The position numbers were made by a program, and so were the translations under genes. Below are positions 3,308-29,023 of a stretch of DNA of 35,210 nt, piece after piece; the stretch's first letter is position 1, and every line of letters starts with the position of its first letter. The notes beneath the pieces were generated by a model. It worked only from the letters and a program-made list of their open reading frames with translations, was not told where the DNA came from and made no database searches. This DNA is from Nemertoderma westbladi (lineage: Eukaryota; Animalia; Xenacoelomorpha). The stretch lies in assembly GCA_032718475.1 (NCBI GenBank), contig JAUCBJ010002870.1:1-35210 (forward strand). Direction: 5' to 3'.

Positions 3308-3504
3308 ATAATTGAGTTGAGATAATGTCTGGGAGAACTCAGGTGACCAAAAAAGAAAGGGTAACAACAGTTACGAGCTTTCACCCAACAGGGCTTCTCA
3401 AGCCATTCATCAAGCCCTGTCGGATGAAAGCTCGTAACTGTTGTTACCCTTTCTTTTTTGGTCACCAGAGAGAGGTCTCCCAGACATTATCTCAACTCAA
3501 TTAT
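3308..3504. repeat. Long near-perfect inverted repeat (foldback/MITE-like)
   Basis: ATAATTGAGTTGAGATAATGTCTGGGA... at 3308 is mirrored by ...TCCCAGACATTATCTCAACTCAATTAT ending at 3504. Arms are ~90 bp and the central spacer is ~15 nt. Confidence 0.9.
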
Positions 3505-3739: not shown

Positions 3740-4313
3740 GGAGCAGGTTAAGGCCGGATTTTCTAACCAAAACAATAAACAGTCACTTTACCAAATGAAG
3801 GAAAGGAGCAGGTTACAGAGGTTTGCCTTTCTAACCAAAACAATAAACGGCCACTTTACCAAATTAGGGAAAGGAGCAGGTTACAGAGGCGGGATTTTCT
3901 AATCAAAACAATAAACAATCTCTTAACTAATTGAGGGAAAGGAGCAGGTTACAGAGGCGGGATTTTCTAACCAAAACAATAAACGATCACTTAACTAATT
4001 GAGGGAAAGGAGCAGGTTACAGAGGCGGGATTTTCTAACCAAAACAATAAACGATAACATTACCAATTGAGAGAAAGGAGAAGGTTACAGAGGCGGGATT
4101 TCCTAACCAAAACAATAAACGATCTCTTAACTAATTGAGGGAAAAGAGCAGGTTAGAGAGGCGGGATTTTCTAACCAAAACAATAAACGATCACTTAACT
4201 AATCGAGGGAAAGAGCAGGTTACAGAGGCGGGGTTTTCTAACCAAAACAATAAACGATCACTTAACTAATTGAGGGAAAGGAGCATGTTACAGAGGCGGG
4301 ATTTTCTATCCAA
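3740..4313. repeat. 68-bp tandem repeat, ~8 copies
   Basis: Unit GGAGCAGGTTACAGAGGCGGGATTTTCTAACCAAAACAATAAACGATCACTTAACTAATTGAGGGAAA, e.g. starting at 3941 and 4009. Confidence 0.95.
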
Positions 4314-5779: not shown

Positions 5780-6330
5780 CACAGAAAGACTGCTGCAGAC
5801 TGGCTACCAGTTACAGATAGACTGCGGGCGTCTGGATACCAGTTAAAGGCAGACTGCTGGGGCCTGGCTACCAGTTACAGGCAGACTGCTAGCGCCTGGC
5901 TACCAGTTACAGACAGAATCCTGGCACCTGGCTACCATGTTACAGACAGACTGCTGGCGCCTGGCTACCAGATACAGACAAACTGCTGGCGCCTGGCTAT
6001 CAGTTACAGACAGACTGCGGGCGTCTGGATATCAGTTACAGGCAGACTGCTAGCGCCTGGCTACCAGATACAGACAGACTGCTGGCGCCTGGCTACCAGT
6101 TACAGACAGACTGCGGGCATCTGAATACCAGATAAGGCAGACTGCTAGCGCCTGCGTACCATAAGATACAGACAGACTGCTGGTGCCTGGCTACCAGTTA
6201 CAGACAGACTGCAGGCGTCTGGATACCAGTTACAGGCAGACTGCTAGCGCCTGGCTACCAGATACAGGCAACTGCTAACGCCTGGCGACCAGTTACAGAC
6301 AGATTGTGGGCGCCTGGCGACCTCTTACAT
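5780..6330. repeat. 32-bp tandem repeat, ~17 copies
   Basis: Unit ~CAGACAGACTGCTGGCGCCTGGCTACCAGTTA; TACCAG recurs at 5805, 5837 and 5869. Confidence 0.95.
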
Positions 6331-6427
6331 ACAGGTACTGTACTTCGCAGCGCAGTGGTTACATCGCGTTTCGGCAACTATCACGTTCGGCAAGAGTAGT
6401 AATTCGGCAATAAAGTTACGTTTCGGT

Positions 6428-6860: not shown

Positions 6861-7334
6861 TCTGAACTCTGTCACTCGCTCACCTGTAAGGTGGTGCCTT
6901 ACCAAGGCGCAATACAGATGAGTGACAAGTTAAAGATGGTCTGTATAGTTCGACAATGGCCTATTCCTTACCTAACTATGCCTTTTAACCTAAATTCTTA
7001 TTACTTAATTTTGAAGCTAGTAAATGTACCCTAATTTCAGTTTCTGTCAGTTACTTTTATTATGTTCCAGAATAATTTTCCTAGTGTTGCCATAATTTGT
7101 AACTTTTTTTTATTTATTTTTAATTTAGTTTTAACTCTACTGTCCTACTACTTACTATTGCCTATGGATTATTCTATTCTCTAATCCACATTCTGGCCTA
7201 CTCTGTGGGCCTGTGGAGTACAACAGTATATGTCGCGTGGCCTACACGATCTATTCAACTGTGCTCATATGCCTCCCTCTCGCTACTAACTGCTAACTAA
7301 TATCTATATCATATATACCCTTCTACCTCTATCT

Positions 7335-8165
7335 CTTACTAACTAGTACTACGTACTTTCTTACTAACTCTTACTCTCTCTAACTAACTATCGGTACTAC
7401 GTAACCTCTAACTCTTATTCTCTCTCTCTCTAACTATCGGAACTACGTACCCTCTAACTCTTACTCTCTCTCTCTAACTATCGGTACTACGTACCCTCTA
7501 ACTCTTACTCTCTCTCTCTCTAACTATCGGTACTACGTACCCTCTAACTCTTACTCTCTCTCTCTCTAACTATCGGTACTACGTACCCTCTAACTCTCAC
7601 TCTCTCTCTCTCTAACTATCGGAACTACGTACCCTCTAACTCTTACTCTCTCTCTCTAACTATCGGTACTACGTACCCTCTAACTCTTACTCTCTCTCTC
7701 TCTAACTATCGGTACTACGTACCCTCTAACTCTTACTCTCTCTCTCTAACTATCGGTAATACGTACCCTCTAACTCTCACTCTCTCTCTCTCTAACTATC
7801 GGTACTACGTACCCTCTTACTCTTACTCTCTTTCTAACTACGTACCCTCTAACTACTCTAACTAACTAACTAACACTCACTCTCTTTCTAACTAGCGGTA
7901 CTACGTACCCTCTAACTACTCTAACTAACTAACTAACTAACGGTACTACTTACCCTCTAACTCTTACTCTCTTTCTAACTAACGGTACTATGTACCCTCT
8001 AACTACTCTAATTCCACTAACTAATGGTACTACGTACCCTCTAACTCTTACTCTCTTTCTAACTAGTGGTACTACGTACCCTCTAACTACTCTAACTCCA
8101 CTAACCAACGGTACTACGTACCCTCTAACTCTTACTCTACTAACTAACTAACTGACTAACTCTTA
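7335..8165 (-). repeat. ~42-46-bp tandem repeat in the 3' region of copy A, ~17 units
   Basis: Plus-strand unit CTAACTATCGGTACTACGTACCCTCTAACTCTTA(CT)n. Confidence 0.95.
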
Positions 8166-8286
8166 CTATTTTTTTATTTATTTTATTTTTTGTGTGGGAA
8201 GGGCGTCTCGCCCTCAATCCCACCCCCCTCAGTCCAAAAACTTGGACGACTAAACACTTCTCACCCCTATACTCTACACTCTACAT

Positions 8287-11200
8287 TTAAGGTGCTCCTT
8301 CTAATAGACAGCATTTCCCTACAGCCCTCCTGTAGGTTTTTCTGTCTTTCGCACCTATCTTGCCACCTATCCGCACTTCTACCGATCGGACTCTTCCGTC
8401 CTCATCGGAGTAGGTGCCTACCACTCTCGCCAACCGCCACTGGTTGTTGATGATAGTATCATCCGTGACGATCACGAGATCTCCCTCCCTTAACTCCCTA
8501 CTTGATTTCCTCCACTTGCTTCGTTTGTGAAGCGCTTATTATTTCTTATTATTATTTCCAACTCTGGCATGAGTGTATGTCATCTGGGTCTACACCCCGC
8601 ATATCGATGGTCGCTGGCCTCTCCATTAGGAAATGGCTGGGCGTCAGCACCTCTAGTGACTCAGGGTCATCATTCTCCGGATATGGCGGTCTGCTATTAA
8701 TGATACCCTCACACTTTGCAAGTACTGTTCTCAAGACGTCCTCCGTGACCATATGGGTGTTCATTAACTTCGTCATTAGACGCTTTGAACTGCCCACCAG
8801 TCTCTCGACGCATCCTAGTGTATGTGGTGCATACGGCGTCCTTCTCTCCCACTTTACTTGTCGTCGCCTCATGGCTGCCCTGACTTCCCTCCCCTTCCAA
8901 GATGTCCAAGGCCTCTGCCATCTCGTTCTCTGCCCCCACAAAGTTGGTTCCGCTGTCGGAGTACATTACTTCGATCGTCCCACCTTTGCGGTCTCTGAAC
9001 CTTTCTAATGCATTTATAAATGCTGATGCGGTTGCATCTTGGGCGAGTTCTATCCCTACCGCCTGTGTGTTGTTACATACGAAGATAATACCGTAGCGTT
9101 TCTCCGTATGCCGCATTACTTTGATCTTTATCGGCCCGAACATGTCCACACTGCAATGCGTAAATGGCGGGTCGTGCTGACTTACTCTGCTCGCCGGTAG
9201 TGGCGCCATCTCCTGTATGGCTCGCTCCTTCTTCGCTCGTCTGCAGGTCTGGCACTGCCCCACTACCGCTTTTACCTTCTTTCTCAACTGTTTGACCCAA
9301 TAGGTCCTCCTTATCTACGCGAGGGTTCGGTTGGTGCCCCCGTGCAATATCGACTTGTGGGAGTCCCAGATAATCTGGTGGACTATTGGCGATCCTGTAG
9401 GGATGATGATGGGCTTCGGCGGTACCACGATGCTGTTGTTGTATCCCACCCTAGAGTTCATTACTAGAATCCCGTCATCATTAAGTTGTGGTGACAGCTC
9501 GCTTGTGATTAGCTCGCTGTCCCGTCGAAGATGCTGTTGCTTACTGACGCGTTCCACCTTGTCGCCATAGTTCTTCCGTTGTTCATAGCGGATGACTGCT
9601 CCGGCCGCTCCTTCCAGATCTATGGTTGTCCTGATCTTCTTGTCTTTGCCAACTCCCGCGAGGAAATTCCCGAAGGCTCTCCAGTACGCCACTAATTTAT
9701 ACCAACTAGAGCTGTAGCTGAGGAGTTTGTCCGTTGGGTTATCGCACAGTTCTTCTGGTTTGGGTCGCATGTCCCTTATCTCCCTCACCATCTGGGAGTA
9801 TATCTCTTCCCCCTCTGAATCTCCCTCTTCTCCCTCTGATACTACTTCTCCCCAGCCCGGGTCCACCTTTCTCATCGGCGGCCAGGCCTCCTTGTCGCTC
9901 AGAAACTGAGGCCCGTGTTGCCACAATGCTTCCTTTTTTAAGAAAGTGTGGCGTGCCACGCCCCTCGATAACAAGTCCGCTGGGTTCTCGTCCGTTGGGC
10001 AGTAGTGCCACCTTTCTAGCTCTGTCGTCGCCCTTATTTCGTCCACTCTATTCGCGACGAATATAGGGTATCGCGTTTTCTCGTTATGTAGCCAGCCGAG
10101 CACTACCATGGAGTCCGTCCAGTAGTGTGTCTCCACTATGTTGGGAATAGCGTCCATTATGTAGGCTGTGGCCCTAACTCCTAATCTCGCAGCTGTCAAC
10201 TCTAGTTTGGGAACCGATGCCGAATCTGGTGGCATTGACTTTGCCTTGCTGAAGGCAAGTCTGGGCTTGTGAGACCCCTCTCGTTGTACTAAGTAGAGTG
10301 CCGCTCCGTAAGCCTCTAGTGACGCATCGGAGAACATATGCAGATCCAGGTTCGTCATGTCCCCATCCGGGAAATACACTCGTGGCATGCTGTATGTTCC
10401 CATCTGCTCTAAACCTTCTGTCCACTTACACCACTGTTTCTTAATCTCTTCTGGTACCTCTTCGTCCCACTCATCCTTCAGTTTGTATACTCTTTTGAGT
10501 ATCTGTTTCCCCGTTACTAGTAGTGGGGATGCTAGGCCTAGGGGATCGTATATTCTTGCTATGTATGACACATAGCCTCTCTTTGTGTGGATGTCTGCGC
10601 CCTCCTGGCTCAGCTGGTACTTCAGTTCGTCTGTCTCTCTGTTCCACACGATTCCCAGTGCCTTCTGTTGAGACTCTGTTCTCTTATTCGCCATGTCCTG
10701 CCATTTGGCTGTCGTGGGATTATCCATGGTCGATTCTGGTCTCTCGTCCTCTATCGCTCTGATAAATTCCTCCGAACTGGATTGGAATTTGGTTAGGTTA
10801 AAGCCGGATCCTTTTAGGATGTCGCGAACCTCGCGCCCTGTGTCCAGTATCTCTTTAACCGTGTTTCCAGACTCCATTCCGTCGTCTACGTAGAAGCCGC
10901 GTCGAATCATATCGACGGCCCTAGTGCTGTATCTATCCTCCTTCCCTTTTACTGTGTCTCTTACTGCCATAGTCGTCGTGAAGGAAGACGACTTGGCCCC
11001 CATGTTCTGTACTATCATTTTGTACATCGGTATAATCGACGGTTCTTCGTCGCCGTTGTACCATAAGAAGCGTTGACTATCGCTATCTTCTTCCGTTACA
11101 CGGACTTGGTTGAACATGCCCTCTATATCACAGGTGAAGGCGTGTTTCCCATTCCTGAATCTAAGTAGAACCTCGATCCCCGAGTTGTAGATATTGGGAC

Positions 11201-14200
11201 CCTCTAGCAGGTAGTCGTTTAGGCATTTTCCTTTGGTTTTTGCCGACGCATCCACTACCATTCGTAGTTTACCTTTCTTTGGATCTAAAGCAACATGGAG
11301 TGGCAGGTAATATGTCCTGTCCGTGTTCGGTTTGTCGACCGGTAACTCCACGGCCCATCCCTTCTCGACGTACTTCTTAATAGTTCTGTGGATGTACTCA
11401 TTCTTCTCGGGGCTCCGTTTTAATGTCTGCTTCAACTTACGAAGCCTCGTGAGTACCATCCCTCTATTATCGGGTAACGGTAGCTTCGGTAGCTTCCATA
11501 CCATCCCTATGGTATACCGCCCCTCATCGCATGTCATGGACTCCTCTACGCTCTGTTGAGCCTGTTTGTCCTCCACCGAGGTCCCTACTCCGGTCTCCTT
11601 TAATCCCTCAAAATCTTGTTTGAGCAGTCTTTTAAGCTGCTCCTCTGCTCTCTCATCACCCATTTCCTGCATAGTTCCCGCGAACATGCATCCTGATGTC
11701 TCCAACATCCTAAATGGTATCTTGCTCTTGATTGGGCCACTCAGTGTCCACCCGAATGGTGTCAGTATCGCCACTGGGTCACACTCCCTGTCTTCGCCGA
11801 AGACCGTTTGCATTCTTTCGTGGGCCGTCGGGCAGTCCATTCCTACTATGATGGATACCTTCGTGACGTCCACCTCCAGGATTGAGAAGTCAATGCTGTC
11901 TAGGAATTTATATTGCTCGACCTCGATGTTGGTTGGCCGCCTGGCATTGATATTAATTGACTCTATCACTTGGATGGGGTCGATGGTTGCCCCGTAGTCG
12001 CATCCCGGTGCCACCGCTGCAATTGCGCACCGTCCTGTCCTCATCTCTAGGACCTTGTCTTTGCTAGAGATTGTTGTTACCGCCATTCTACTTGGCCTCG
12101 TTCTCAATCCTATTTCTTTGGCCACCCAATCTTCAACTAATGTGAAGGCAGCTCCGCTATCGACCAGCATCAGAGTGGTCACCGATCGATTGCCTTCTCC
12201 AATCACTCGCACTGGTACTACCCCAAGCAGCACCGTTCCTCTTTTCTTTGCCCCTACTGTGCTCGTTGCCATCGTTTGGCCTTTGTTTTGACTGAACTTG
12301 ATCGGGGTCTCCTTGCATTGCCTAGCTCTATGTCCACTCATCACACATTGCGAGCAGATCTCATTTCTCGCCGCGTATTCTACCTGATCTTCCCTGGGTA
12401 ACGCTTGCCAGTAGCTGCAATTCATGGTTCGATGATTTGCATTTGTATGTAGCTGGCATTTACTCTTCGGGTCGTAGCCGTCCTTGTACAGCGCATCGCG
12501 TATCGCAGTTGCATTTGTACTAAAGTCCCTACTGTTTTTACTGTTTGGGTTCGGCCTACTGAATGTACTGGGGTTATATTTATTCGTGTTGTTATTTTTC
12601 CCCTGTCCGGTCTTACCCTCGGCTACTTGTGGACTTGCAGTCCCCTGCGTCGCTGCATATGGCAGTAATTGCCTGAGCTTTGGTAATGCATTCGAGGTGT
12701 TGTGTTCTGGTTTCGGTCTATGGTAATTTGTCTTTGATCCCTTTCCCAGGCTATCTTCGCTATAGACTGGGTCGGTTATTTGTTCAGCTTCGTAGCTTCA
12801 GAAGCTCGACATTTCTTCTAAACCCGGTTCCGCACCCTTTCTATCTCAAGTGGAGAAAGCGATTTTCCTCCACTTGTTACGCAGCCAGATCGGCAGTGCC
12901 TGCGCTATCGTGGTGATGTTGTTGGACGCGTTGAGCTCGTACGGTGCGTCTAGCGTCTTTAGCACATTCAGCGCCTTTTCGACTTTGTTAGCGAACGTCT
13001 TAATGCTAACGGGATTATCCTGTAGGCCACCCGTTGTTATGCCTCTCAGGGTTTGCCTGATGATCTTAGCTGGGTGCCCGTATTCCCTATCCAGTGCCCG
13101 CCATGCCGTCGTGAAGCCGCCTTCTATACCCTGGTATTGCCTCACGATGTCGTATGCTGGGCCCCCTGTGTATACTTGCAGATACTTTAGGCACTCCGCC
13201 TGCGTCAAGTTCTTCGTTAGTATTTCGTTACTATACATACGCCGAAACTGTAGATATTCTTCCGGCCTACTCCCATCGAATTTGAATGGTTCCACGGGTG
13301 GTAACTCGATCCTAGTTTTTAACGCATCAATTAACGTGGCCATCCCCACCGCCTGCGCTTCCAATGGGTTCGATGGATGTTGCATAGTTTCTCTTGTTAG
13401 GTGCGGTCCGTCCGTCCTATTTCCTGTCTTCCTCTGGCTTGGGTATATCATTGGGGGTAGCGGCCCCCTCCATATTTCTGTGTCGCATGACCTATTTCCA
13501 TCCAAGGGGTTCATTGTTCTCGCTCCTATTGGGGTATACTGTTGATATTGTGATGGGGGAATGTCACCCTGTCCCCCCCCCCCCACCAGTATGTTTGGTA
13601 CTGGGGTTGATGTTAATATATTGGGGCCCATGCACCTATCCGCAATAATTCCCCCCTCCCCTGGGTATATGTTATATCATTTCGTGCTGTAGTCATACTG
13701 CTGCACTGGTACCGGTATAGGCCTATCAGCTTCTGGCCTACCTACCGGTATGTATTCCGCGACTTCCGGGTTCAATCCCGTTGTTCACGCTATTCTATCG
13801 CCTACATTGCCTCTGTCAGCATGGCCTATGGTATGTGCAGTAAGGCCTACAGTATGTCCTACAGTCTGTATGTGTTGCTCGGGATCGAAGTTTATTCTTC
13901 TCGAATAATCCTCCCCATGGCTACCGTATTCTCGATCGGCAGGTACATCCCGTCGGAAAGTTTCTCTTCGACCCCCTCTACTGCTCTCATCTTCGTACCG
14001 GTACATCATGTACCCCTCTCTCGACGCGCAGTGCGCCTCGTCGGGTCGCGTCTCTCCGGGACGACGGCAATCTCCCGAAGTTCGACCCCACTGACTCTCT
14101 CCTTCCATCTCAACTACCAACGGATCGCTATCCGTCCTCGCTCTTCTATCGTTCGCGGCGATACTTCTCCTACTGTCTTATCTTCTTCTCCTTTCAGTGC

Positions 14201-16340: not shown

Positions 16341-16410
16341 CTCTCTACTTTAGATTGGTGGCTGGTAGTCACTGTTCAGCTAACTAGGGTGGCAGCTCTG
16401 ATTCAATTAC

Positions 16411-16954
16411 TGTGACGGGATCCAGGAAGGATCCCGGTTTATCCGGTTTATCGATTCACGCGTCCCCGCCGTGTGTGAAAGGTAAAAGAGTTTGCGTTGT
16501 TCGTCGTATATAATAATCGGGTATATAGATATAGATAGTGTATGATAATGAGATAATACGTTGTTGTATATGGAAGGCGGGAGACGGTAATTGAAGTCCC
16601 GGTACTTCCCTAGCTAAAACTAACTAACCTATCTAGCACCAATAACACTGAGATAACTGAATGAGATGATTACTGCCAACTGGTTATATTGCACGGGTTG
16701 GCCTTGTTACTGTACCTAGCCGGTGCCTTTCCCCCCTCTGATTGGTTGATACCCTTGTTGGCGCCCTTTGGAGTGTTCCCGTTCACTCCACCTATTCTCT
16801 CTATGTCAGGGGAGTAACCCCTGACCCTCATTGTGTGTTCTCCCTTCCCACTTTGTTGGGGAGACACGAGTGGGTGATTGCCCAATCTCGTGGCCCCCAA
16901 TATTTCTTATCGGCTTTACTTTATGGGGTGTTAACGGGATTGAATAGGCTAACA
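16411..16954 (-). repeat. 5' LTR of copy A (544 bp, TGT...ACA)
   Basis: The - strand begins TGTTAGCCTATTCAATCCCG and ends GGATCCCGTCACA; homologous to the LTRs at 19704, 24716 and 28426. Confidence 0.93.
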
Positions 16955-17533: not shown

Positions 17534-19703
17534 CAACCGCTCCTCCCTATTCCACCCGTTATGGCTCCAGCTCCACCCTTCCAACAACCTCAGCCCAATC
17601 CAACTGCTCCTCCCTATACCACCCTCTGTGGCTCCAGCTCCACCCTTCCACCAGCCTCAGCCCAATCCAACTGCTCCTCCCTATAACACCCGCTGTGGCT
17701 CCAGCTCCACCAGCTTCAGCCCAATCTAACAGCTCCTCCCTACCACCCGCTGTGGCTTCAGCTCCACCCTTCCACCAGCCTCAGCCCAATCCCACTACTG
17801 CTCCTCCCCTATACCACCCGCTGTGGCTCCAGCTCCACCCTTCCACCAGCATCAGCCCAATCCAATTCTCCTCCCTATAACAGCCGCTGTGGCTCCAGGT
17901 TCAGTCCAATCCAACTGCTTCTCCCTACCACCCGATGTGGCTCCAGCTCCACCCTTCCAACAGCCGCAGCCCAATCCAACTGCTCCTCCCTATAACACCC
18001 GCTGTGGCTCCAGCTCCACCAGCTTCAGCCCAATCCAACTGCTCATCCCTACCACCCGCTGTGGCTACAGCTCCACCCGTCCACCAGCCTCAGCCCAATC
18101 CCACTGCTCCTCCCTATACCACCCGCTGTGGCTCCAGCTCCACCCTTCCACCAGCATCAGCCCAATCCAACTGCTCCTCCCTATAACAGCCGCTGTGGCT
18201 CCAGCTTCAGTCCAATCGAACTGCTCCTCCCTACCACCTGATGTGGCTGCAGCTCCACCCTTCCAACAGCCTCAGCCCAATCCAACTGCTCCTCCCTATA
18301 CCACACGCTGTGGCTCCAGCTTCACCCTTCTACCAGCCTCAGCCCAATCCAACTGCTCCTCCCTATAACATCTGCTGTGGCTCTAGCTCAACCCCTCCAC
18401 CAGCCTCAGCCCAATCCAACTGTCCCTCCCTATAACACCCGCTGTGGCTCCAGCTCCACCCTTCCGCTTGCACCAGCCCAATCCAACTGTTCCTCCCTAT
18501 ACCACCCGCTGTGGCTCCAGCTCCACCCTTCTACCAGCATCAGCCCAATCCAATTGCTCCTCCCTATACCACCCGCTGTGGCTCCAGCTCCACCCTTCAA
18601 CTAGCCTCAGCCCAATCCAACTGATCCTCCCTATACCACCCGCTGTGGCTCCAGCTCCACCCTTCCACCACCCTCAGCCCAATCCAACTGCTCCTCCCTA
18701 TACCAGCCGCTGTGGCTCCAGCTCCACCCTTCCACCAGCCTCAGCCCAATCCAACTGCTCCTCCCTATACCACCCGCTATGGCTCCAGCTCCACCCTTCC
18801 ACCAGACTCAGTCCAATCCAACTGCTCACCCCTATACCACCCGCTGTGGCTCCAGCTCCACCCTTCCACCAGCCTCAGCCCAATCGAACTGCTCCTACCT
18901 ATAACACCTGCTGTGGCTCCAGCTCCACCCTTCCAACAGCCTCAGCCCAATCCAACTGCTCCTCCCTATAACACCCGCTGTGGCTCCAGCTCCACCAGCT
19001 TCAGCCCAATCCAACTGCTCATCCCTACCACCCGCTGTGGCTACAGCTCCACCCGTCCACCAGCCTCAGCCCAATCCCACTGCTTCTCCCTATACCACCA
19101 GCTGTGGCTCCAGCTCCACCCTTCCACCAGCATCAGGCCAATCCAACTGCTCCTCCCTATAACAGCCGCTGTGGCTCCAGCTTCAGTCCAATCGAACTGC
19201 TCCTCCCTACCACCTGATGTGGCTGCAGCTCCACCCTTCCAACAGCCTCAGCCCAATCCAACTGCTCCTCCCTATACCACACGCTGTGGCTCCAGCTTCA
19301 CCCTTCTACCAGCCTCAGCCCAATCCAACTGCTCCTCCCTATAACATCTGCTGTGGCTCTAGCTCCACCCTTCCACCAGCCTCAGCCCAATCCAACTGTC
19401 CCTCCCTATAACACCCGCTGTGGCTCCAGCTCCACCCTTCTGCTTGCACCAGCCCAATCCAACTGTTCCTCCCTATACCACCCGCTGTGGCTCCAGCTCC
19501 ACCCTTCTACCAGCATCAGCCCAATCCAATTGCTCCTCCCTATACCACCCGCTGTGGCTCCAGCTCCACCCTTCAACTAGCCTCAGCCCAATCCAACTGA
19601 TCCTCCCTATACCACCCGCTGTGGCTCCAGCTCCACCCTTCCACCAGCCTCAGCCCAATCCAACTGCTCCTCCCTATACCAGCCGCTGTGGCTCCAGCTC
19701 CAC
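17534..19703. repeat. 67-bp satellite, left block
   Basis: Unit CCACCCGCTGTGGCTCCAGCTCCACCCTTCCACCAGCCTCAGCCCAATCCAACTGCTCCTCCCTATA, with some deleted variants. Confidence 0.97.
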
Positions 19704-20233
19704 TGTTAGCTTATCCAATTCCGCTAACACAACCCCATAGAGTGAGTCATTAAGCAATATTGGGGGCCACGAGGTTGGTTACCCAATCTCGTGTCACCCC
19801 AACAAAGTGGGAAGGAGAAACACACAATAAGGGTCAGGGGCCAAACCCCTAACAGAGATAGAACAGCAGGAGTGAAGGGAAACACTCCAAAGGGTGCCAA
19901 CAGGGATATTAGCCAATCAGGGGGGAAGCATCGGCTGAGTAGCAATATGGCCAACTGTGCAATATATATTACCGGTAGGTGCAGCATTCATTCAGTTATC
20001 CTAGTACAGTCAGGCAGAACGGTGACAGGTAGGACCGTCACCGCCGTCACCATATTACCGGTACATTACCATCATTAACTGCTATCTGCTATCATCCTAT
20101 TTATACTGTATCAGTGTATTTCATATATTAACAATAACGTCGGAGCAACACAAACTCTTTTCCATCACGGTACGGCGGGGACGCGTACACAAACAACACC
20201 GGATAAACCGGGATCCTCTCGGATCCCATCACA
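19704..20233 (+). repeat. 5' LTR of copy B
   Basis: TGTTAGC...CATCACA, a direct repeat of 24716-25245. TATA-like ATATATA near 19964 and initiator-like TTCAGTT near 19991. Confidence 0.97.
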
Positions 20234-20283
20234 GTCCTAACTCTAGGCCTGCCGAACTGTGACTGATAGCCACCAAGGTTAAG

Positions 20284-21567
20284 ATGAGTCAAGAGAGAGA
20301 AACGACACCACCGCGGACCCCGGACGACGATCTAACGATCCGCGAGGCCGCGACGAGACGCTATAAACCCATGATGCCGGACCCATCGATAACGGGCGAC
20401 CCGGTAACCGAAGATGAGGGGGGCCGTCTACAAAGAGAGGACGAGTCGGGAGTCGAAAGGGAGAAAGACGAGTCGACGCGGAGCGAGGGTCGACGTACCG
20501 ATGTCGCCGGCCAGCCACAGGCCGAGGACGACGGACGGTCCACCGGAACGGCGACGGTGGGGCCGCCGGTACAACGTCGGACCCGGAGAGACGGAAGAGA
20601 GGTCGGCGACGAGGACGTCGGGGTTTCTGATCGACTTCGACGAGCCTACCTTGCGACCAGGGAGCGACTGAGAGAGGCCAAAGGAGGGGCGAAGATAGAC
20701 GAGGTGAGACTGAGGAAACGACTAGGTGAGTCGAATAGACACTTTGATTACCTAATGCGTTTTGGGCAGAGAGAACTAGCCGAGGAGAGGGCGAGGGGAG
20801 TTGCCAACGAACTGATTGAACTATGGGAGTGTAGAGGTATGCAGCCTAGTGTAGTGTACATAGGGCCATACTTAGTCGATGCCCGGGGAGTAAAATTAGT
20901 GGGTTGGAGGAGACCGCTGGAGGGCGAATCCGAGGTTAACTCCGAGGATTCGGTCTCGTCGGTCGGAAGAAGTTCCGGGAAGCGGGGGAAAGTTGGTAGG
21001 ATGGAGGGGCGACGGGAGTCCGTCGCAACCGATAAGTCTGCTACATCCTCCGAAAAGGAAAGAAGGGTGCGGAGAAAAAATCTAGAGTATAAATTAGAAA
21101 TGGCGGCGGCAGAGCGGAAACAGTTAGAGGGGCAATTGAGAGAGCAAACCGCATTATTAGAGTTGGTAAGGGAGGATAGAGAGAGGGCCGAGGAGCATAG
21201 AGATCGGGAGAGGAGAATAGAGAGCGAGCCGGCGAGGCGGTCTGAGATGCTTGCAAGAGAGACGGCCGAGCGAGATTTGCAAGTGTGCAGAGAGAGAGAG
21301 ATAGGGGAAGAACGTAAGCTGGATGGTTTGCGTGTCCGGCTGGAGGGGCTTGGGCTATATCGGGCCAAACTAAAGCAGCGCCGACTAGAACTGGCGCGAT
21401 TGGAAATATCAGAGAGTGAGCCCCCACTTATAAGCACAGAGCGAGAGGAAAAGGAACAGAGCATGCGGTACACGTACAGTGCGCATAATAACCAGTTTTG
21501 GACTGAGGGGGGTGGGAATGAGGGCGAGACGCCCTTCCCACGCATAAAATATAAAATAATTATTTAA
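20284..21567 (+). CDS. 427-aa ORF homologous to the N-terminal extension of the family's Gag (Glu/Arg-rich, coiled-coil-like)
   Basis: Shares MSQ..TTP.RTPD..TIREAATRRY and VYIGPYLVDA.G.KLVGW..P..GESEVN.EDS.SSVG with the ORFs at 16340(-) and 29024(+); uninterrupted. Confidence 0.8.
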   Translation: MSQERETTPPRTPDDDLTIREAATRRYKPMMPDPSITGDPVTEDEGGRLQREDESGVEREKDESTRSEGRRTDVAGQPQAEDDGRSTGTATVGPPVQRRTRRDGREVGDEDVGVSDRLRRAYLATRERLREAKGGAKIDEVRLRKRLGESNRHFDYLMRFGQRELAEERARGVANELIELWECRGMQPSVVYIGPYLVDARGVKLVGWRRPLEGESEVNSEDSVSSVGRSSGKRGKVGRMEGRRESVATDKSATSSEKERRVRRKNLEYKLEMAAAERKQLEGQLREQTALLELVREDRERAEEHRDRERRIESEPARRSEMLARETAERDLQVCREREIGEERKLDGLRVRLEGLGLYRAKLKQRRLELARLEISESEPPLISTEREEKEQSMRYTYSAHNNQFWTEGGGNEGETPFPRIKYKIII

Positions 21568-21579
21568 TTAAAAATAATC

Positions 21580-23183
21580 TACCTCGTGGTCAACCAACCC
21601 CGCCGGTTGTAGCCGTGGGCTACAACCCCGAACCGACCAAGAGTTACCTCGTGGTCAAACCGGGGTTGGAAGACGAGGCCCAGGCGATGTTCGGTCCGAG
21701 TGGAATTCGGATCTGTGCCGGTCACCGTTTCCTCGGGGGATATATCGGAGATGAGGCTGGCCGGAAGGAGTTCGTTGCCAAGAAAGTCGATGGCTGGGTT
21801 GGCAATATCGGGAAACTCGCGGGGGTTGCAACAGAGTACCCCCAGACCGCCCACACGGGAATGTCCCGCTGTGTGCAGGCGGAATGGGACTACCTGCTGC
21901 GGGTCGTACCCACCCACGCCGAGGATGTCACCCCAATTCGGACGGCATTGCTAAGTAAGTTCATCCCCTCCCTCTTCGGGTGTTCTAGTCTGCAACCGGC
22001 CGACGAGGATCTCACCCTCCTCCCAGCCCGCCACGGCGGCATCGGACTGCGGGACCCTACAATGCGGCAGACCCCGGCACGCTCTGCGTCCATGGAAGGC
22101 ACCGCGGTAGTTTCCGAGGCGATCCAGAGGACGCAACCTCTCCACGTGGCCGACCACACTGCCAAATTGCGAGCCGTCCTCACAGCTAGCCGCATCTCCC
22201 AGGACGAGGCCTACAAGGAGAAGCGGGAGGCTGCGTTGGGAGCTCTACCGGCAGACCGCAGGCGAACTGCGACGCGAGCGGTCCTAAACAAAACCGGCGG
22301 CTGGTTGACGGCCCAGCCAAGCATCCTGGACGCCACCGACCTCAGTGCCGAGGAGTTCCGGGACAGCCTGAACCTCCGGTATGGCCTCGTCCCACCAGGA
22401 CTCCCGTCCAAGTGCGAGGGATGTGGGGGGACGTTCTCCACCTCGCACGCGCTCAGCTGCAAGTCCGGCGGCCTCATCGTGAAACGCCACGATGAGGTTC
22501 GCGATGTTTTTGGGGAACTCCTGGCGTCGGCGTTTGGTGCGCCCAGCATTGAGCGGGAGGTGACCCTGTCCCGGGGGTACCTCGACAGGGAAGGTAGGGA
22601 GGTAGGGGGAGTGCGGGCGGATTTGGTCGCGCGAGGGGTTTGGGCGAACCAGAGAGTGGCGTCGTTTGATATTGCGGTAATTAACGCTGACGCCACCTCT
22701 TACGCCCAGACCAACCGCTCGACCGAGTCCCTCCTGGAGCAGCGGTGCCGGTTAAAGAAGATGCATTACCGGACCGTCTGTGAAGACCGGAGGATGTCAT
22801 TCACCCCTCTGGTGGGCACCACCGACGGTGTCTGGAGCGCCGAGGCCCAGATCCTCATCCGCCATCTCGCCGAGACACTCGTGGCCCGGCGGGATGGAAT
22901 GCGAGAGAGGGGCCTCGCGTGTGTCATGGGGGGTGTTCGACGGCGGCTGCAGTTCGCGCTTCTCCGGTCCAGCTCCCTCTGCCTCCGGGGCGGCCGACGG
23001 TCGTGGCGAGGCTTGGGCTTCGGGGACGGGGCCGGTCTGCGAGGTGCGGGGCTGGCAGACCAGTTCTGAGTCGCTTTGTGTGGTGATGGGTATTTGTATT
23101 TTTAATTTGTATAACGGTCTAATATATATATATATATCCACATATATATTGTGTTTAAATATAATAATATTTACAAATCAAAA
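21580..23183 (+). mobile_element. 5'-truncated CRE-like non-LTR retrotransposon (RLE type) nested in copy B
   Basis: Abrupt GC-rich block inside an A-rich tract, with an AT-rich 3' UTR. Possible imperfect TSD TAATTAAAAA(A)TAA at 21565-21577 and 23184-23197. Confidence 0.85.
21615..23069 (+). CDS. Partial ORF: RT C-terminal region, CCHC zinc finger and restriction-like endonuclease
   Basis: GYNPEPTKSYLVV, HRFLGGYIG, LPARHGGIGLRDP, FRDSLNLRYG, CEGCG..HALSCKSGG..RHDEVRD, RADL..RGVW..FDIAV..K..HY..FTPLV..DG. The RT catalytic core is absent. Confidence 0.88.
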   Translation: MGYNPEPTKSYLVVKPGLEDEAQAMFGPSGIRICAGHRFLGGYIGDEAGRKEFVAKKVDGWVGNIGKLAGVATEYPQTAHTGMSRCVQAEWDYLLRVVPTHAEDVTPIRTALLSKFIPSLFGCSSLQPADEDLTLLPARHGGIGLRDPTMRQTPARSASMEGTAVVSEAIQRTQPLHVADHTAKLRAVLTASRISQDEAYKEKREAALGALPADRRRTATRAVLNKTGGWLTAQPSILDATDLSAEEFRDSLNLRYGLVPPGLPSKCEGCGGTFSTSHALSCKSGGLIVKRHDEVRDVFGELLASAFGAPSIEREVTLSRGYLDREGREVGGVRADLVARGVWANQRVASFDIAVINADATSYAQTNRSTESLLEQRCRLKKMHYRTVCEDRRMSFTPLVGTTDGVWSAEAQILIRHLAETLVARRDGMRERGLACVMGGVRRRLQFALLRSSSLCLRGGRRSWRGLGFGDGAGLRGAGLADQF

Positions 23184-23254
23184 TAATTAAAAAATAAACT
23201 TGGTAGAAGTTAGGTAGTAAGAGAGTAGTACCGTTAGTTAGAAAGAAAGTAGTA

Positions 23255-24150
23255 GCAGTAGAGGGTTGTGGGCACCATAAGCGCCACGTAGGGAGAAGAG
23301 CAGTAGGGGGTTGTGGGCACCGTAAGCGCCACGTAGAAAGTAGTAAGCAGAGTGGTTGTGGGCACCGCAAGCGCCACGTAGTTAGAGTTAGTAGGGGATG
23401 CGTTGAACTAAGTGGGGCACGGGCGTGATGACGTGTTTGATGTAAGAGCAGGGTATGTTAATTAGGGTGGGTGCCGGGCACAAGAGGTGCCGGGCACAAA
23501 AAAGAGTTAGTAGTAGAGTTAGTAAGAGTTAGTAGAGAGTTAGTAAGAGTTAGTAGTAGAGTTAGTTGAGTTAGTAGAGTTAGTAAGAGTTAGTAGTAGT
23601 TCACATAATTTACGTACCCACTCTGCCGGCATTCAGAGCGTCACGTGCAGGCGAATAGATGTAAAGGAAGTAAGTTAGAGATAGAGTAGAGTAGTAGAGA
23701 GGGCACATATGGTGCCAGGTAGTAGAGTTAGAGTATTAGAGGTAGTAGAGAGGGCACATAGGGTGCCAGAGAGTAAAGTAGTAGAGAGGGCACATAGGGT
23801 GCCAGGTAGTAGAGTTAGAGTGTTAGAAGTAGTAGAGAGGGCACATAGGGTGCCAGAGAGTAGAGTAGTAGAGAGGGCACAAAGGTTGCCAGGTAGTAGA
23901 GTTAGTGTTAGAGGTAGTAGAGAGTGCACATAGGGTGCCAGAGAGTAGAGTAGTAGAGAGGGCACATAGGGTGCCAGGTAGTAGAGTAGAGCAGAGAGGG
24001 CACATAGGGTGCCAGGTAGTAGAGAGGTAGTTGAGTAGTAGAAGGGCACATAGGGTGCCAGATAGTAGAGTGGTTGTGGGCACCGCAAGCGCCACATAGA
24101 AGGAAGTAGTAGCAAAGGGGTTGTGGGCACTGCAAGCGCCACGTAGTTAG
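23255..24150 (+). repeat. Mixed tandem repeats in the 3' region of copy B
   Basis: GGTTGTGGGCACCGCAAGCGCCAC units (three near 23264-23380, two near 24072-24143), GAGTTAGTA runs, and about nine GGCACATAGGGTGCC units at 23700-24060. Confidence 0.9.
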
Positions 24151-24706
24151 AAGAGTGGGTAGAGTTAGGGAGTTCTAGTTAGAGGGCTAGAGAGTTGGTA
24201 GACTTAGAGGAGTCAAGTAGAGTTAGTAGAAGTAGAGAGTTAGTAGGAGTTAGTTAGACTTAGTAGAGCTAGTTAGAGTCGGAGAGTTAGTAGAAAGTAA
24301 GATAGTTAGATAGTTAGCAAGTAAGTAGTAGGTAGATAGTATGATAGCACAGGGGTAGCATTAGAGATTAGGGCCTTGGAGAGTGGTAGAGAGGAGATAG
24401 TGAGAGGAGTATGGAGAGAAGTTAGAGTGCGATTCAGGTGTGGGGAGAGAGTAAGAATGGGGAGTTGAGTTAGAGAGCGGAGCTAGAGTGGTGAGAGTGC
24501 CGGGGAAACAAAAATTGTGTGAGAGAAGCTCACGATCGGCCCGACACGAGACGCCAGAGGGTAGTGACATCATACCCATAGGGAGCGACCTGGAAAGCCG
24601 GCTCCGAAAGAAAATAGACCCACCCCACACCCGATACTAGATCGGGATCCAGCGGAATTGTAGCGCACTTTAGGTGGATGCTATCTTCTCACCGGGAAGA
24701 TAGCAT

Positions 24707-24715
24707 GGGGGGGAG
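24707..24715 (+). promoter_or_regulatory. Polypurine tract (plus-strand primer)
   Basis: GGGGGGGAG immediately before the TGT of the 3' LTR. Confidence 0.85.
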
Positions 24716-25245
24716 TGTTAGCTTATCCAATTCCGCTAACACAACCCCATAGAGTGAGTCATTAAGCAATATTGGGGGCCACGAGGTTGGTTACCCAATC
24801 TCGTGTCACCCCAACAAAGTGGGAAGGAGAAACACACAATAAGGGTCAGGGGCCAAACCCCTAACAGAGAGAGAACCGCAGGAGTGAAGGGAAACACTCC
24901 AAAGGGTGCCAACAGGGATATTAGCCAATCAGGGGGGAAGCATCGGCTGAGTAGCAATATGGCCAACTGTGCAATATATATTACCGGTCGGTGCAGCATT
25001 CATTCAGTTACCCTAGTACAGTCAGGCAGAACGGTAACAGTTAGGACCGTCACCGCCGTCACCATATTACCGGTACATTACCATCATTAACTGCTATCTG
25101 CTATCATCCTATTTATACTGTATCAGTGTATTTCATATATTAACAATAATGTCGGAGCAACACAAACTCTTTTCCATCACGGTACGGCGGGGACGCGTAC
25201 ACAAACAACACCGGATAAACAGGGATCCTCTCGGATCCCGTCACA
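24716..25245 (+). repeat. 3' LTR of copy B
   Basis: TGTTAGC...CGTCACA, followed by the TSD TCCAC. Confidence 0.97.
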
Positions 25246-28200
25246 TCCACCCTTCCACCAGCCTCAGCCCAATCCAACTGCTCCTCCCTATACCACCCGC
25301 TATGGCTCCAGCTCCACCCTTCCACCAGCCTCAGCCCAATCGAACTGCTCCTACCTATAACACCTGCTGTGGCTCCAGCTCCACCCTTCCACCAGCCTCA
25401 GCCCAATCCAACTGGTCCTCCCTATAACACCCGCTGTGGCTCCAGCTCCACCCTTCCGCTTGCACCAGCCCAATCCAACTGCTCCTCCCTATACCACCCG
25501 ATGTGGCTCCAGCTCCACCCTTCCACCAGCCTCATACCAATCCAACTGCTCCTCCCTATACCACCCGCTGTGGCTCCAGCTCCACCATTCCACCAGCCTC
25601 ATACCAATCCAACTGCTCCTCCCTATACCACCCGCTGTGGCTCCAGCTCCACCCTTCCACCAGCCTCATACCAATCCAACTGCTCCTCCCTATACCACCC
25701 GCTGTGGCTCCAGCTCCACCCTTCCACCAGCCTAAGCCCAATCTAACTGCTCCTCCCTATACCACACGCTGTGGCTCTAGCTCCACCCTTCCACCAGCCT
25801 CAGCCCAATCCAACTGATCCTCCCTATACCACCCGCTGTGGCTCCAGCTCCACCCTTCCACCAGCCTCAGCCCAATCCAACTGCTCCTCCCTATAACACC
25901 CGCTGTGGCTCCAGCTCCACCCTTCCAACAGCCTCAGCCCAATCCAACTGCTCCTCCCTATACCACCCGATGTAGCTCCAGCTCCACCCTTCCACCAGCC
26001 TCAGCCCAATCCAACTGCTCCTCCCTATAATACCCGCTGTGACTCCAGCTCCACCCTTCCACCAGCCTCAGCCCAATCCAACTGGTCCTCCCTATAACAC
26101 CCGCTGTGGCTCCAGCTCCACCCTTCCGCTTGCACCAGCCCAATCCAACTGCTCCTCCCTATACCACCCGATGTGGCTCCAGCTCCACCCTTCCACCAGC
26201 CTCATACCAATCCAACTGCTCCTCCCTATACCACCCGCTGTGGCTCCAGCTCCACCATTCCACCAGCCTCATACCAATCCAACTGCTCCTCCCTATACCA
26301 CCCGCTGTGGCTCCAGCTCCACCCTTCCACCAGCCTCATACCAATCCAACTGCTCCTCCCTATACCACCCGCTGTGGCTCCAGCTCCACCCTTCCACCAG
26401 CCTAAGCCCAATCTAACTGCTCCTCCCTATACCACACGCTGTGGCTCTAGCTCCACCCTTCCACCAGCCTCAGCCCAATCCAACTGATCCTCCCTATACC
26501 ACCCGCTGTGGCTCCAGCTCCACCCTTCCACCAGCCTCAGCCCAATCCAACTGCTCCTCCCTATAACACCCGCTGTGGCTCCAGCTCCACCCTTCCAACA
26601 GCCTCAGCCCAATCCAACTGCTCCTCCCTATACCACCCGATGTAGCTCCAGCTCCACCCTTCCACCATCCTCAGCCCAATCCAACTGCTCCTCCCTATAA
26701 TACCCGCTGTGACTCCAGCTCCACCCTTCCACCTGCCTCAGCCCAATCCAACTGCTCCTCCCTATAACAACTGCTGTGGCTCTAGCTCCACCCTTTCACC
26801 AGCATCAGCCCAATCCAACTGCTCCTCCCTATACCACACGCTGTGGCTCTAGCTCCACCATTCCACCAGCCTCAGCCCAATCCAACTGCTCCTCCCTATA
26901 CCACCCGCTGTGGCTCCAGCTCCACCATTCTACCAGCCTCAGCCCAATCAAACTGCTCCTCCTTATACCACCCGATGTGGCTCCAGCTCCACCCTTCCAA
27001 CAGCCTCAGCCCAATCCAACTGCTCCTCCCTATACCACCCGCTGTATCTCCAGCTCCACCCTTCCACCAGCCTCAGCCCAATCCTACTGCTCCTCCCTAT
27101 AACACCCGCTGTGGCTCCACCTCCACCCGTCCACCAGCCACAGCCCAATCCAACTGCTCCTCCCTATACCACCCGCTGTGGCTCCAGCTCCACCCTTCCA
27201 CCAGCCTCAGCCTAATCCAACTGCTCCTCCCTATAACACACGCTGTGGCTCTAGCTCCACCCTTCCACCAGCCTCAGCCAAATCCAACTGCTCCTCCCTA
27301 TACCACCCGCTGTGGCTCCAGCTCCACCCTTCCACCAGCCTCAGTCCAATCCAACTGCTCCTCCCTATACCACCCGCTGTGGCTCCAGCTCCACCCTTCC
27401 ACCAGCCTCAGCCCAATCCAACTGATCCTCCCTATAACACCTGCTGTGGCTCCAGCTCCACCATTACACCAGCCTCAGCTCAATCCAACTGCTCCTCTCT
27501 ATAACACTCGCTGTGGTTCCAGCTCCGTCCTTCCACCAGCCTCAACCCAATCCAACTGCTCCTCCCTATAACACCCGCTGTGGCTCCAGCTCCACCCTTC
27601 CAACAGCCTCAGCCCAATCCAACTGCTCCTCCCTATACCACCCGATGTAGCTCCAGCTCCACCCTTCCACCAGCCTCAGCCCAATCCAACTGCTCCTCCC
27701 TATACCACCCGCTGTTGCTCCAGCTCCACCCTTCCACCAGCCTCAGCCCAATCCAACTGCTCCTCCCTATCCCACCCGCTGTGGCTCCAGCTCCACCCTT
27801 CCACCATCCTCAGCCCAATCCAACTGCTCCTCCCTATATCACCCGCTGTGGCTCCAGCTCCACCAGCTTCAGCCCAATCCAACTGCTCCTCCCTACCACC
27901 CGCTGTGGCTACAGCTCCACCCTTCCACCAGCCTCAGCCCAATCCCACTGCTCCTTCCTATACCACCCGCTGTGGCTCCAGCTCCACCCTTCCACCAGCA
28001 TCCACCCAATCCTACTGCTCCTCCCTATAACAGCCGCTGTGGCTCCAGCTTCAGTCCAATCCAACTGATTCTCCCTACCACCCGATGTGGCTCCAGCTCC
28101 ACCCTTCCAACAGCCTCAGCCCAATCCAACTGCTCCTCCCTATAACACCCGCTGTGGCTCCAGCTCCACCAGCTTCAGCCCAATCCAACTGCTCAACCCT

Positions 28201-28425
28201 ACCACCCGCTGTGGCTTCAGCTCCACCCTTCCACCAGCCTCAGCCCAATCCCACTGCTCCTCCCTATACCACCCGCTGTGGCTCCAGCTCCACCCTTCCA
28301 CCAGCGTCAGCCCAATCCAACTGCTCCTCCCTATAACAGCCGCTGTGGCTCCAGCTTCAGTCCAATCGAACTGCTCCTCCCTACCACCTGATGTGGCTGC
28401 AGCTCCACCCTTCCAACAGCCTCAG
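25246..28425. repeat. 67-bp satellite, right block
   Basis: Same unit as the left block; resumes in register after the TSD. Confidence 0.97.
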
Positions 28426-28954
28426 TGTTAGCTTATCCAATCCCGCTCACACCCCATAAAGTTGTAAGCCGATAAGCAATATTGGGAGCCACGAGATTGG
28501 ATAGTTAACCAATTCGTGCCATCCCAATAAGAGTGGGAAGGAAGCACACAATAGAGGGTCAGGGGCCAAACCCCTAACCCAGAGAGAACAGGTGGAGTGA
28601 ACGGGAACACTCCACGGGGCGCCAACAAGGGTATCAACCAATCAGAGGGGGGCAAGGCATCGATTAGGTAGTAATTAGGCCAACCGTGTAATATAATCAG
28701 TAACCTATTAATCAGTAATTCAGTTATCTCAAGTGCAGTAGAGCTAGCTTAGGTTAGTTAGTTTAGATAGGGGAGCACGGGACTTTTAGTTACCGTATCC
28801 CGCCTTCCACATATCTATATCTATATCTATACCCATTGATTATTATACACCGAACATCAGAACTCATTCACCGTTTCGTTTACTCTTTATACACGGCGGG
28901 GACGCATAAACTAAAATACCGGATAAATCGGGATCCCTCCTGGATCCCGTCACA
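28426..28954 (+). repeat. 5' LTR of copy C (529 bp)
   Basis: TGTTAGCTTATCCAATCCCG...GGATCCCGTCACA. Confidence 0.93.
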
Positions 28955-29023
28955 GTAACTAAAACCAGCTGCCGCCCCAGATAAAACTCGATAACCACTA
29001 GCCACCGAAACCTGCAGAAGAGG

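Follow-up and report, generated by a model that had tools for sequence, protein, structure and literature searches.

The window, i.e. the whole stretch of 35,210 nucleotides that was analyzed, contains three related LTR elements, here designated A, B and C, which are grouped about an array of 67-bp tandem repeats (17534-19703 and 25246-28425). Element A is read on the minus strand. Its 5′ LTR (16411..16954, 544 nt, TG...CA) is followed by gag, pol and then 3′ repeats down to approximately position 7130, and no 3′ LTR of this element was found within the window. The longest pol frame of A (9315..12797, minus strand) encodes protease, reverse transcriptase (RT), a Pao-type RNase H region and the start of the integrase; what we take to be the RT motif with YVDD and the RNase H motifs are kept, while all other frames of this element are broken. 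Element C (plus strand) starts with a 5′ LTR of 529 nt (28426..28954) and continues past the window end. A and C are 87.7% identical across 4.1 kb of gag-pol, and each of them carries stops or frame changes in this region. Only element B (19704-25245, plus strand) has both ends complete. Its 5′ LTR (19704..20233, 530 nt) and 3′ LTR (24716..25245) differ at 9 of 530 positions, a polypurine tract (24707..24715) abuts the 3′ LTR, and the target duplication TCCAC lies inside the 67-bp array. Since B possesses only the 5′ part of gag (20263..21567) and no pol, it is non-autonomous. As all three copies are broken or incomplete, none of them qualifies as a demonstrably active element.

Pfam searches of A disclosed, in this order, PF03564, an aspartyl protease, RVT_1 (weak), PF05380 (E 2e-41), an integrase zinc domain and rve (weak), while PF03564 and the protease were detected in C. 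Upon scoring of the 7,990 best word-sharing candidates, PF05380 was present in 120 of the 120 protein matches listed, at 32-37% identity (best 36-37%). The named best relatives come from aquatic invertebrates and a schistosome, and the protein searches gave no relative above 37-40% identity. Judged by their proteins, the elements are of the BEL/Pao type and constitute a lineage without close relative in the collection searched. The LTR lengths (529-544 nt) fall within the range of 0.2-1.2 kb that serves as BEL/Pao criterion, as do the polypurine tract and the target duplication of B fit such an element.

Some further features of the window should be mentioned. B and C lie within or border the 67-bp array, and contigs of other sequencing runs continue the array at the insertion point of C; an insertion preference for this satellite is possible. 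The 3′ UTRs of A (7327-8160, minus strand) and B (23200-24340, plus strand) consist of long purine-rich tandem arrays with different units, and a 65-nt block immediately after the pol end is common to A (8175-8239) and B (21496-21562). Just past the junction of the gag fragment and the 3′ UTR, B contains an insert frame (21555-23190, plus strand, 504 aa). Its CCHC-like zinc motif and the motifs RHD and D..D are reminiscent of the C-terminal RT and restriction-like endonuclease part of a 5′-truncated CRE-type non-LTR element. The protein neither gave a Pfam match nor resembled the RT encoded at 2-2974. A 13-bp hairpin (24678-24706, plus strand, -17.8 kcal/mol) ends directly at the polypurine tract of B, and its sequence recurs in a contig of run X6, which is labelled as another organism. 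The 990-aa frame at 2-2974 (plus strand), open at the window start, matched RVT_1 (E 1e-30) and likely belongs to an unrelated non-LTR retrotransposon. A near-perfect, MITE-like palindrome of about 200 bp is located at 3308-3504, with 68-bp (3740-4313) and 32-bp (5781-6334) tandem arrays nearby.

The preliminary description of this DNA had reported that no TGG-type primer binding site (PBS) for a tRNA follows any of the 5′ LTRs, and that the PBS position is instead complementary to the element's own LTR. All sequences quoted there were found in place, and TGG is indeed absent from the first 70 nt behind the 5′ LTR in each of the three elements. The PBS position of A (16402..16410, minus strand) opens a leader of 70 nt that extends to the gag ATG at 16340; it is complementary at 9 of 9 positions to the partner at 16587..16595 (minus strand), the predicted 3′ end of the primer. 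In C (leader 69 nt, gag ATG at 29024, plus strand) the PBS at 28955..28964 and the partner at 28784..28793 match at 10 of 10 positions. In B (leader 50 nt, gag ATG at 20284, plus strand) the claimed complementarity of the PBS (20234..20242) is perfect, with 9 of 9 positions, for the copy of the partner residing in the 3′ LTR (25039-25047), while one mismatch (8/9) exists with the copy in the 5′ LTR (20027..20035).

Comparing 61 leader offsets, we found that the longest perfect LTR complement begins exactly at +1 in all three elements, which agrees with the reported abutment of the duplex on the terminal CA. It comprises 9 nt in A, 9 nt in B (3′ copy) and 10 nt in C, the best non-overlapping complements elsewhere being 7, 7 and 6 nt long. 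Out of 20,000 dinucleotide-shuffled LTRs, 98 (A), 62 (B, 3′ copy) and 26 (C) contained the PBS complement at any place. The real partners occupy a fixed LTR site relative to the R arm described below, for which base frequencies give chance probabilities of 4.6e-6 (A), 3.9e-6 (B) and 8.6e-7 (C). Moreover, the partner is followed by CGT in all four LTRs, as had been noticed before, so that a C stands opposite the terminal A.

The same description counted three co-varying PBSs. Each site is in fact matched in its LTR, but the number of independent lineages is two, as A and C belong together according to their gag-pol identity and the 82% identity of their R 5′ segments, and the covariation within this pair amounts to two compensatory changes. 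A and C are distinguished by two of nine columns, with changes on both the PBS and the partner side; the C partner can still pair with the A PBS via two G-U pairs, while the A partner and the C PBS show two mismatches out of nine. The PBS of B differs from that of A or C at six of nine columns. Cognate combinations of partner and PBS match perfectly, but no more than three of nine Watson-Crick pairs persist when the two lineages are crossed. Since the respective segment of B is only 43-47% alike to those of A and C, it has to be seen as a replacement at the same place rather than a column-by-column homologue. PBS positions 1-2 are invariant, all three sites beginning with GT. The PBS of C begins with GTAAC; that of Tf1, as given in an excerpt of PMC11042837, with ATAAC.

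In addition to the elements of the preliminary description, we identified two conserved helices beside the predicted cut site. Directly 3′ of the A partner lies an R arm (CGT..CCGCC, 16576..16586, minus strand), which is predicted to pair with the U5 arm GGCGGGGACG (16461..16470, minus strand). The corresponding R and U5 arms are located at 20036..20045 and 20174..20183 in B and at 28794..28804 and 28895..28904 in C (plus strand). The U5 arm GGCGGGGACG is invariant, complementary to the R arm and, in all four LTRs, terminates at a distance of 50 nt from the LTR end. A terminal U5 hairpin, in A formed by GGGATCC..GGATCCC (16417..16435, minus strand), in B and C located at 20210..20227 and 28930..28948 (plus strand), closes six bases before the LTR end. 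As the arms and the hairpin are invariant or nearly so, they provide evidence for conservation, not for covariation.

RNA folding was carried out for the four LTRs with two start points and five leader lengths each (40 folds). The U5 hairpin reached mean pair probabilities of 0.97-1.00 in all 40 folds, and the R:U5 core 0.90-1.00 in four of four folds that started at the initiator and included a leader of 70 nt; with leaders of 150 or 250 nt, the core dropped to 0.00-0.38 in 6 of 16 folds. The helix of partner and PBS was less uniform. For B with the 3′-LTR copy it was obtained with 0.91-0.98 in five of five folds from the initiator, but with 0.00-0.13 in four of five folds starting 2 nt above the partner, which indicates that this helix needs the upstream segment, in whose absence the LTR end is occupied by a part of the leader. 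The actual 5′ copy of B gave 0.00-0.11 from the initiator. In A the helix was not dominant from the initiator (0.20-0.49) and reached 0.89-0.96 in four of five short-start folds, a result favoring a short primer; C was intermediate (0.03-0.66). The alternative pairing of a leader segment with the LTR end and PBS start (in B 20228-20235 with 20256-20263) comprises 8 nt (3′ copy) or 7 nt (5′ copy) in B and 5 nt in A, while C has none. Taken together, the folding model predicts that the partner:PBS helix, the R:U5 helix and the hairpin form a three-way junction with ..AC|CGT at the branch. This junction is predicted to set the last C of the partner on PBS position +1, so that a cut there would leave the 3′ end of a primer. 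RNAalifold returned the three-helix fold for the three elements, but its pair counts were set aside, as the B partner had been misaligned by MAFFT. A search of Rfam yielded no match at the gathering score.

The position of the transcription start was predicted from the LTR sequences. TATA and initiator are labels that we assume on the basis of the animal Pol II consensus. All LTRs contain a conserved TTCAGTT whose A follows TATA at a distance of 30-31 nt, amid a stretch in which B and A/C otherwise differ: TATA at 16688 and initiator A at 16658 in A (minus strand, 30 nt apart), 19963 and 19994 in B (plus strand, 31 nt) and 28692 and 28722 in C (plus strand, 30 nt). Counted from the initiator A, the first base of the partner is +64 in A, +34 in B and +63 in C, close to the 35-65 nt estimated previously, and thus the partner does not reside at the 5′ end of the predicted transcript. 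From the initiator A to the predicted cut there are 72 nt in A, 42 nt in B and 72 nt in C, lengths that track those of the leaders (70, 50 and 69 nt). The initiator 9-mer TTCAGTTAT (16661-16653, minus strand; 28719-28727, plus strand) can itself pair with the PBS of A (9/9, including two G-U pairs) and of C (8/9), not with that of B; the partner of A and C may have arisen by duplication of the initiator.

Beyond the core, the leader pairs loosely with the segment upstream of the partner. In a gapless mirror register, a test chosen after the helices had been seen, 28 of 61 positions of the A leader and 22 of 59 of the C leader form Watson-Crick pairs, values reached by 4 and 347 of 10,000 shuffles, respectively. 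The B leader gave no signal in this register (8/33), and 13 of 30 pairs at offset -3; an equally long U3 segment used as control gave no signal either. Gapped mirror scores were reached by 74 (A), 103 (B, 5′ copy), 53 (B, 3′ copy) and 13 (C) of 2,000 shuffles, and the cross-lineage and U3 controls were negative. The best fit of all was obtained with the upstream segment of A and the leader of C (0 of 2,000 shuffles), which was better than that with its own leader; the mirror signal is therefore lineage-specific rather than element-specific. Weaker support came from the duplex energies of the extended pairing (128, 29, 104 and 47 per 1,000 shuffles for A, B 5′ copy, B 3′ copy and C) and from a helix-chain score (248, 20, 245 and 105 per 2,000 in the same order). 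By these comparisons, the leader of A and C looks like a weak mirror copy of the segment upstream of the partner. The caveat raised earlier, that the primer may be internal or longer than in Tf1, thus holds. With the initiator 42-72 nt above the cut, a leader whose length tracks this distance and the mirror resemblance, the primer is probably long, even though a long primer is only somewhat favored over a short one of Tf1 size.

A primer built by splicing was considered as well. We analyzed all GT/GC..AG pairs at least 30 nt apart in the four LTRs, and no product below the predicted start surpassed the unspliced match. The best spliced matches were 0, 6, 10 and 8 nt long compared to 9, 6, 9 and 10 nt without splicing, and in the 10-nt case the donor lies 220 nt above the predicted start. 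AATAAA and ATTAAA are absent from all four LTRs. The poly(A) signal of this family is therefore non-canonical or situated elsewhere, and the R/U5 border cannot be placed.

Attempts were also made to find further copies in contigs of sequencing runs. A part of the C LTR was present in six runs of four studies. The contigs represent a family of considerable diversity and very high depth. Depth, which does not stand for copy number, is high in U3, at the LTR end and at the start of gag; at 80% likeness it is lowest in the R 5′ segment and the leader. In single contigs the LTR end continues into an A-type primer site (run X5) or a C-type site (X2, X3). These contigs diverge directly past the primer site, the C-type site in X2 and X3 being followed by a different leader. 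A contig of run X1 suggests a fourth PBS type, and nine contigs of run X6, which was taken to be an RNA run, covered U3 only. No LTR-end continuation starting with TGG was seen among 24 of 104 loose-end rows and 24 of 258. No record spans partner and PBS, and thus covariation was counted within the window only. In 29 contig rows no variant letter was listed at the partner or PBS, but as differences near contig ends are left unlisted there, this is no evidence. A variant R segment and a variant leader of run X2 share a bulged complement of 11 nt; they were not counted, since no record links the two sequences and their register is off by about 13 nt. A viral contig collection contained no relative of the RT and gave 27 motif matches, and ten motif matches were obtained in a metagenome contig collection; as none of these 37 loci aligned to the window, they were treated as chance.

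The elements share with the Belpaoviridae/Semotivirus the TG..CA LTRs of about 0.53 kb, the polypurine tract, the Pao-specific Pfam families and the order gag-protease-RT-RNase H-integrase. The ICTV profile of the Belpaoviridae describes priming by host tRNA at an 18-nt PBS for tRNA-Arg or tRNA-Gly and calls the replication poorly understood (PMC8742986). Unlike this profile, A, B and C have no such 18-nt site (PMC8742986); without a TGG site in any of the three, they are BEL/Pao elements by protein, yet a variant compared to the profiled members. The closest parallels in presumed function are found elsewhere. In Tf1 of Schizosaccharomyces pombe, RNase H cleavage provides the first 11 bases as primer (PMC7175516), the fold of its primer is a three-duplex pretzel (PMC10085805), and Tj1 has been proposed to self-prime likewise (PMC4600332). 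As in Tf1/Tf2, Tj1, Tosmo1-3 and the Tf1/sushi group, the PBS abuts the terminal CA and complements the element's own LTR RNA, and a core of 9-11 bp is embedded in a multi-helix 5′-UTR fold around the primer end (PMC7175516, PMC10085805, PMC4600332). Unlike the Tf1/sushi elements, which are Ty3/gypsy chromoviruses, the proteins here are of the Pao type, and no chromodomain match was obtained in the frames scanned, a set excluding the last integrase piece. The partner lies 34-64 nt inside the predicted transcript, unlike in Tf1, where the first 11 nt are used. The geometry differs as well. In the Tf1 pretzel, both sequences adjacent to the PBS pair with LTR sequence downstream of the primer (PMC10085805). 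Here, the sequence behind the partner is predicted to form its helix with a U5 arm located 50 nt before the LTR end, a separate hairpin closes U5, and the leader pairs with the segment preceding the partner; the pretzel geometry was not reproduced in our folds, and the post-partner sequence could form no more than 2 bp with the LTR end. By analogy, A, B and C would work like Tf1 without being members of the Tf1 group.

Tcn1 and the TAR lineage of Copia are further elements for which self-priming has been predicted (PMC6317226). Like TAR elements of plants (Houba, Osr-1; Ty1/copia) and Tcn1, our elements possess an LTR complement directly behind the 5′ LTR; that source asks for at least 10 nt, 0-5 nt after the LTR (PMC6317226), a length attained by C, while A and B are one nucleotide short. 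They differ from TAR and Tcn1 in superfamily and kingdom. The words PBS and tRNA did not occur in the main text, as far as accessible, of two BEL/Pao surveys (PMC3118150, PMC554778), and the accessible parts of PMC3601003, PMC5341516, PMC3286476 and PMC6934838 added nothing on BEL/Pao priming. A description of self-priming in BEL/Pao was not found in the literature searched, a body lying outside most subscription journals, Repbase/GyDB and supplements.

The data lead us to propose that these BEL/Pao elements probably self-prime from their own cut RNA, in a way similar to Tf1 but with a different geometry. Nine to ten nucleotides complementary to the own R region would stand in place of the tRNA site. 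Transcription would start at the conserved initiator, 30-31 nt below TATA, and the RNA would be cut at ..AC|CGT inside the predicted three-way junction, by analogy with Tf1 presumably by the element's own RNase H. The released fragment would be the whole 5′ end, with a length of 72 nt (A, C) or 42 nt (B), which may be anchored by its perfect end of 9-10 bp and loosely paired along the leader. This primer would be extended into U5 in minus-strand DNA synthesis. If the retained primer were later copied into the plus strand, as in Tf1, PBS and partner would stay matched; approximately half of the Tf1 cDNA keeps a DNA copy of the PBS according to the excerpt of PMC11042837. The tRNA-independent priming suggested in the preliminary description thus gains support from the cognate-only pairing and from the two flanking conserved helices, and it is on these grounds that we infer it. 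More tentatively, self-priming may have evolved independently of Tf1, with a long, capped 5′ primer of 42-72 nt, a leader decaying as a mirror copy and primer-PBS pairs that can be swapped wholesale, though we regard this extended scenario as less likely than its opposite.

A host tRNA fragment or another small host RNA might prime instead, the LTR partner serving only to cover the site in an anti-PBS helix before priming. Half-tRNA and bipartite primers have been described (PMC5371799), and half-tRNA primers without TGG exist in Osser, Bryco and Bianca (PMC6317226) as well as in Ty5 and copia (PMC5371799). The common GT at the start of all three PBSs and the weakness of the partner:PBS helix in several folds would fit as well. 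The window itself contains no tRNA gene. Yet A and C differ at two and B at six of nine PBS positions, each difference being matched in the LTR; a single host RNA would keep the site from varying, and in the case of several host RNAs the LTR would have had to change along with each, which makes a host primer unlikely. We consider it equally unlikely that the pairing of R and leader is a 5′-UTR structure, possibly a switch with the hairpin formed by LTR end and leader, serving translation, dimerisation or packaging while priming takes another route. That the pairing extends loosely over the whole leader up to the gag start, and that leader segments of 7-8 nt in B and 5 nt in A can instead pair with the LTR end and PBS start, is in line with such a role. 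Against it speaks that perfect pairing begins exactly at +1, the place required in retroelements for a primer end that defines the LTR end, and is limited to the first 9-10 nt in all three elements, and that C lacks a competing hairpin.

Slightly less probable still is a primer that stems from the element, but from the copy of R at the RNA 3′ end or, in trans, from the RNA of another copy or a solo LTR. The partner resides in R and would thus be present at both RNA ends, the perfect partner of B is the 3′ copy, a canonical poly(A) signal is missing, and LTR ends are much deeper in the contigs than the C-type leader (again, depth is not copy number). However, the R:U5 helix starts one base past the partner, an arrangement that makes best sense if both are on one uncut 5′ end, and a poly(A) tail would presumably block a primer at the 3′ end. 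Chance complementarity or a functionless leftover of an inverted duplication, for which one might adduce that the leaders of A and C resemble a mirror image of the 5′ R segment that has decayed, is very improbable: in two lineages with R segments of only 43-47% likeness, decay would have left just the initial 9-10 nt intact, compensatory changes included, and the shuffle rates are 0.1-0.5% each. Self-priming from the own 5′ end is therefore the reading we prefer. What we present is a well-supported sequence signature, to which the junction and the long primer have been added as predictions, and from which the mechanism itself is predicted.

BEL/Pao is the LTR superfamily with the least-studied replication, and its listing by the ICTV as tRNA-primed rests on analogy. 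Under self-priming, the RNA should have a single exact end (..AC|CGT) and each subfamily should yield a fragment of one size, which can be tested directly with existing sequencing methods. Tools that demand a tRNA PBS would miss or mis-score self-primed families. If our interpretation is true, BEL/Pao would, with its self-primed lineage, become the third LTR superfamily in which tRNA priming has been dropped, with an RNA geometry unlike that of Tf1, and such an element may be freed from the host tRNA supply and from defence by tRNA fragments.
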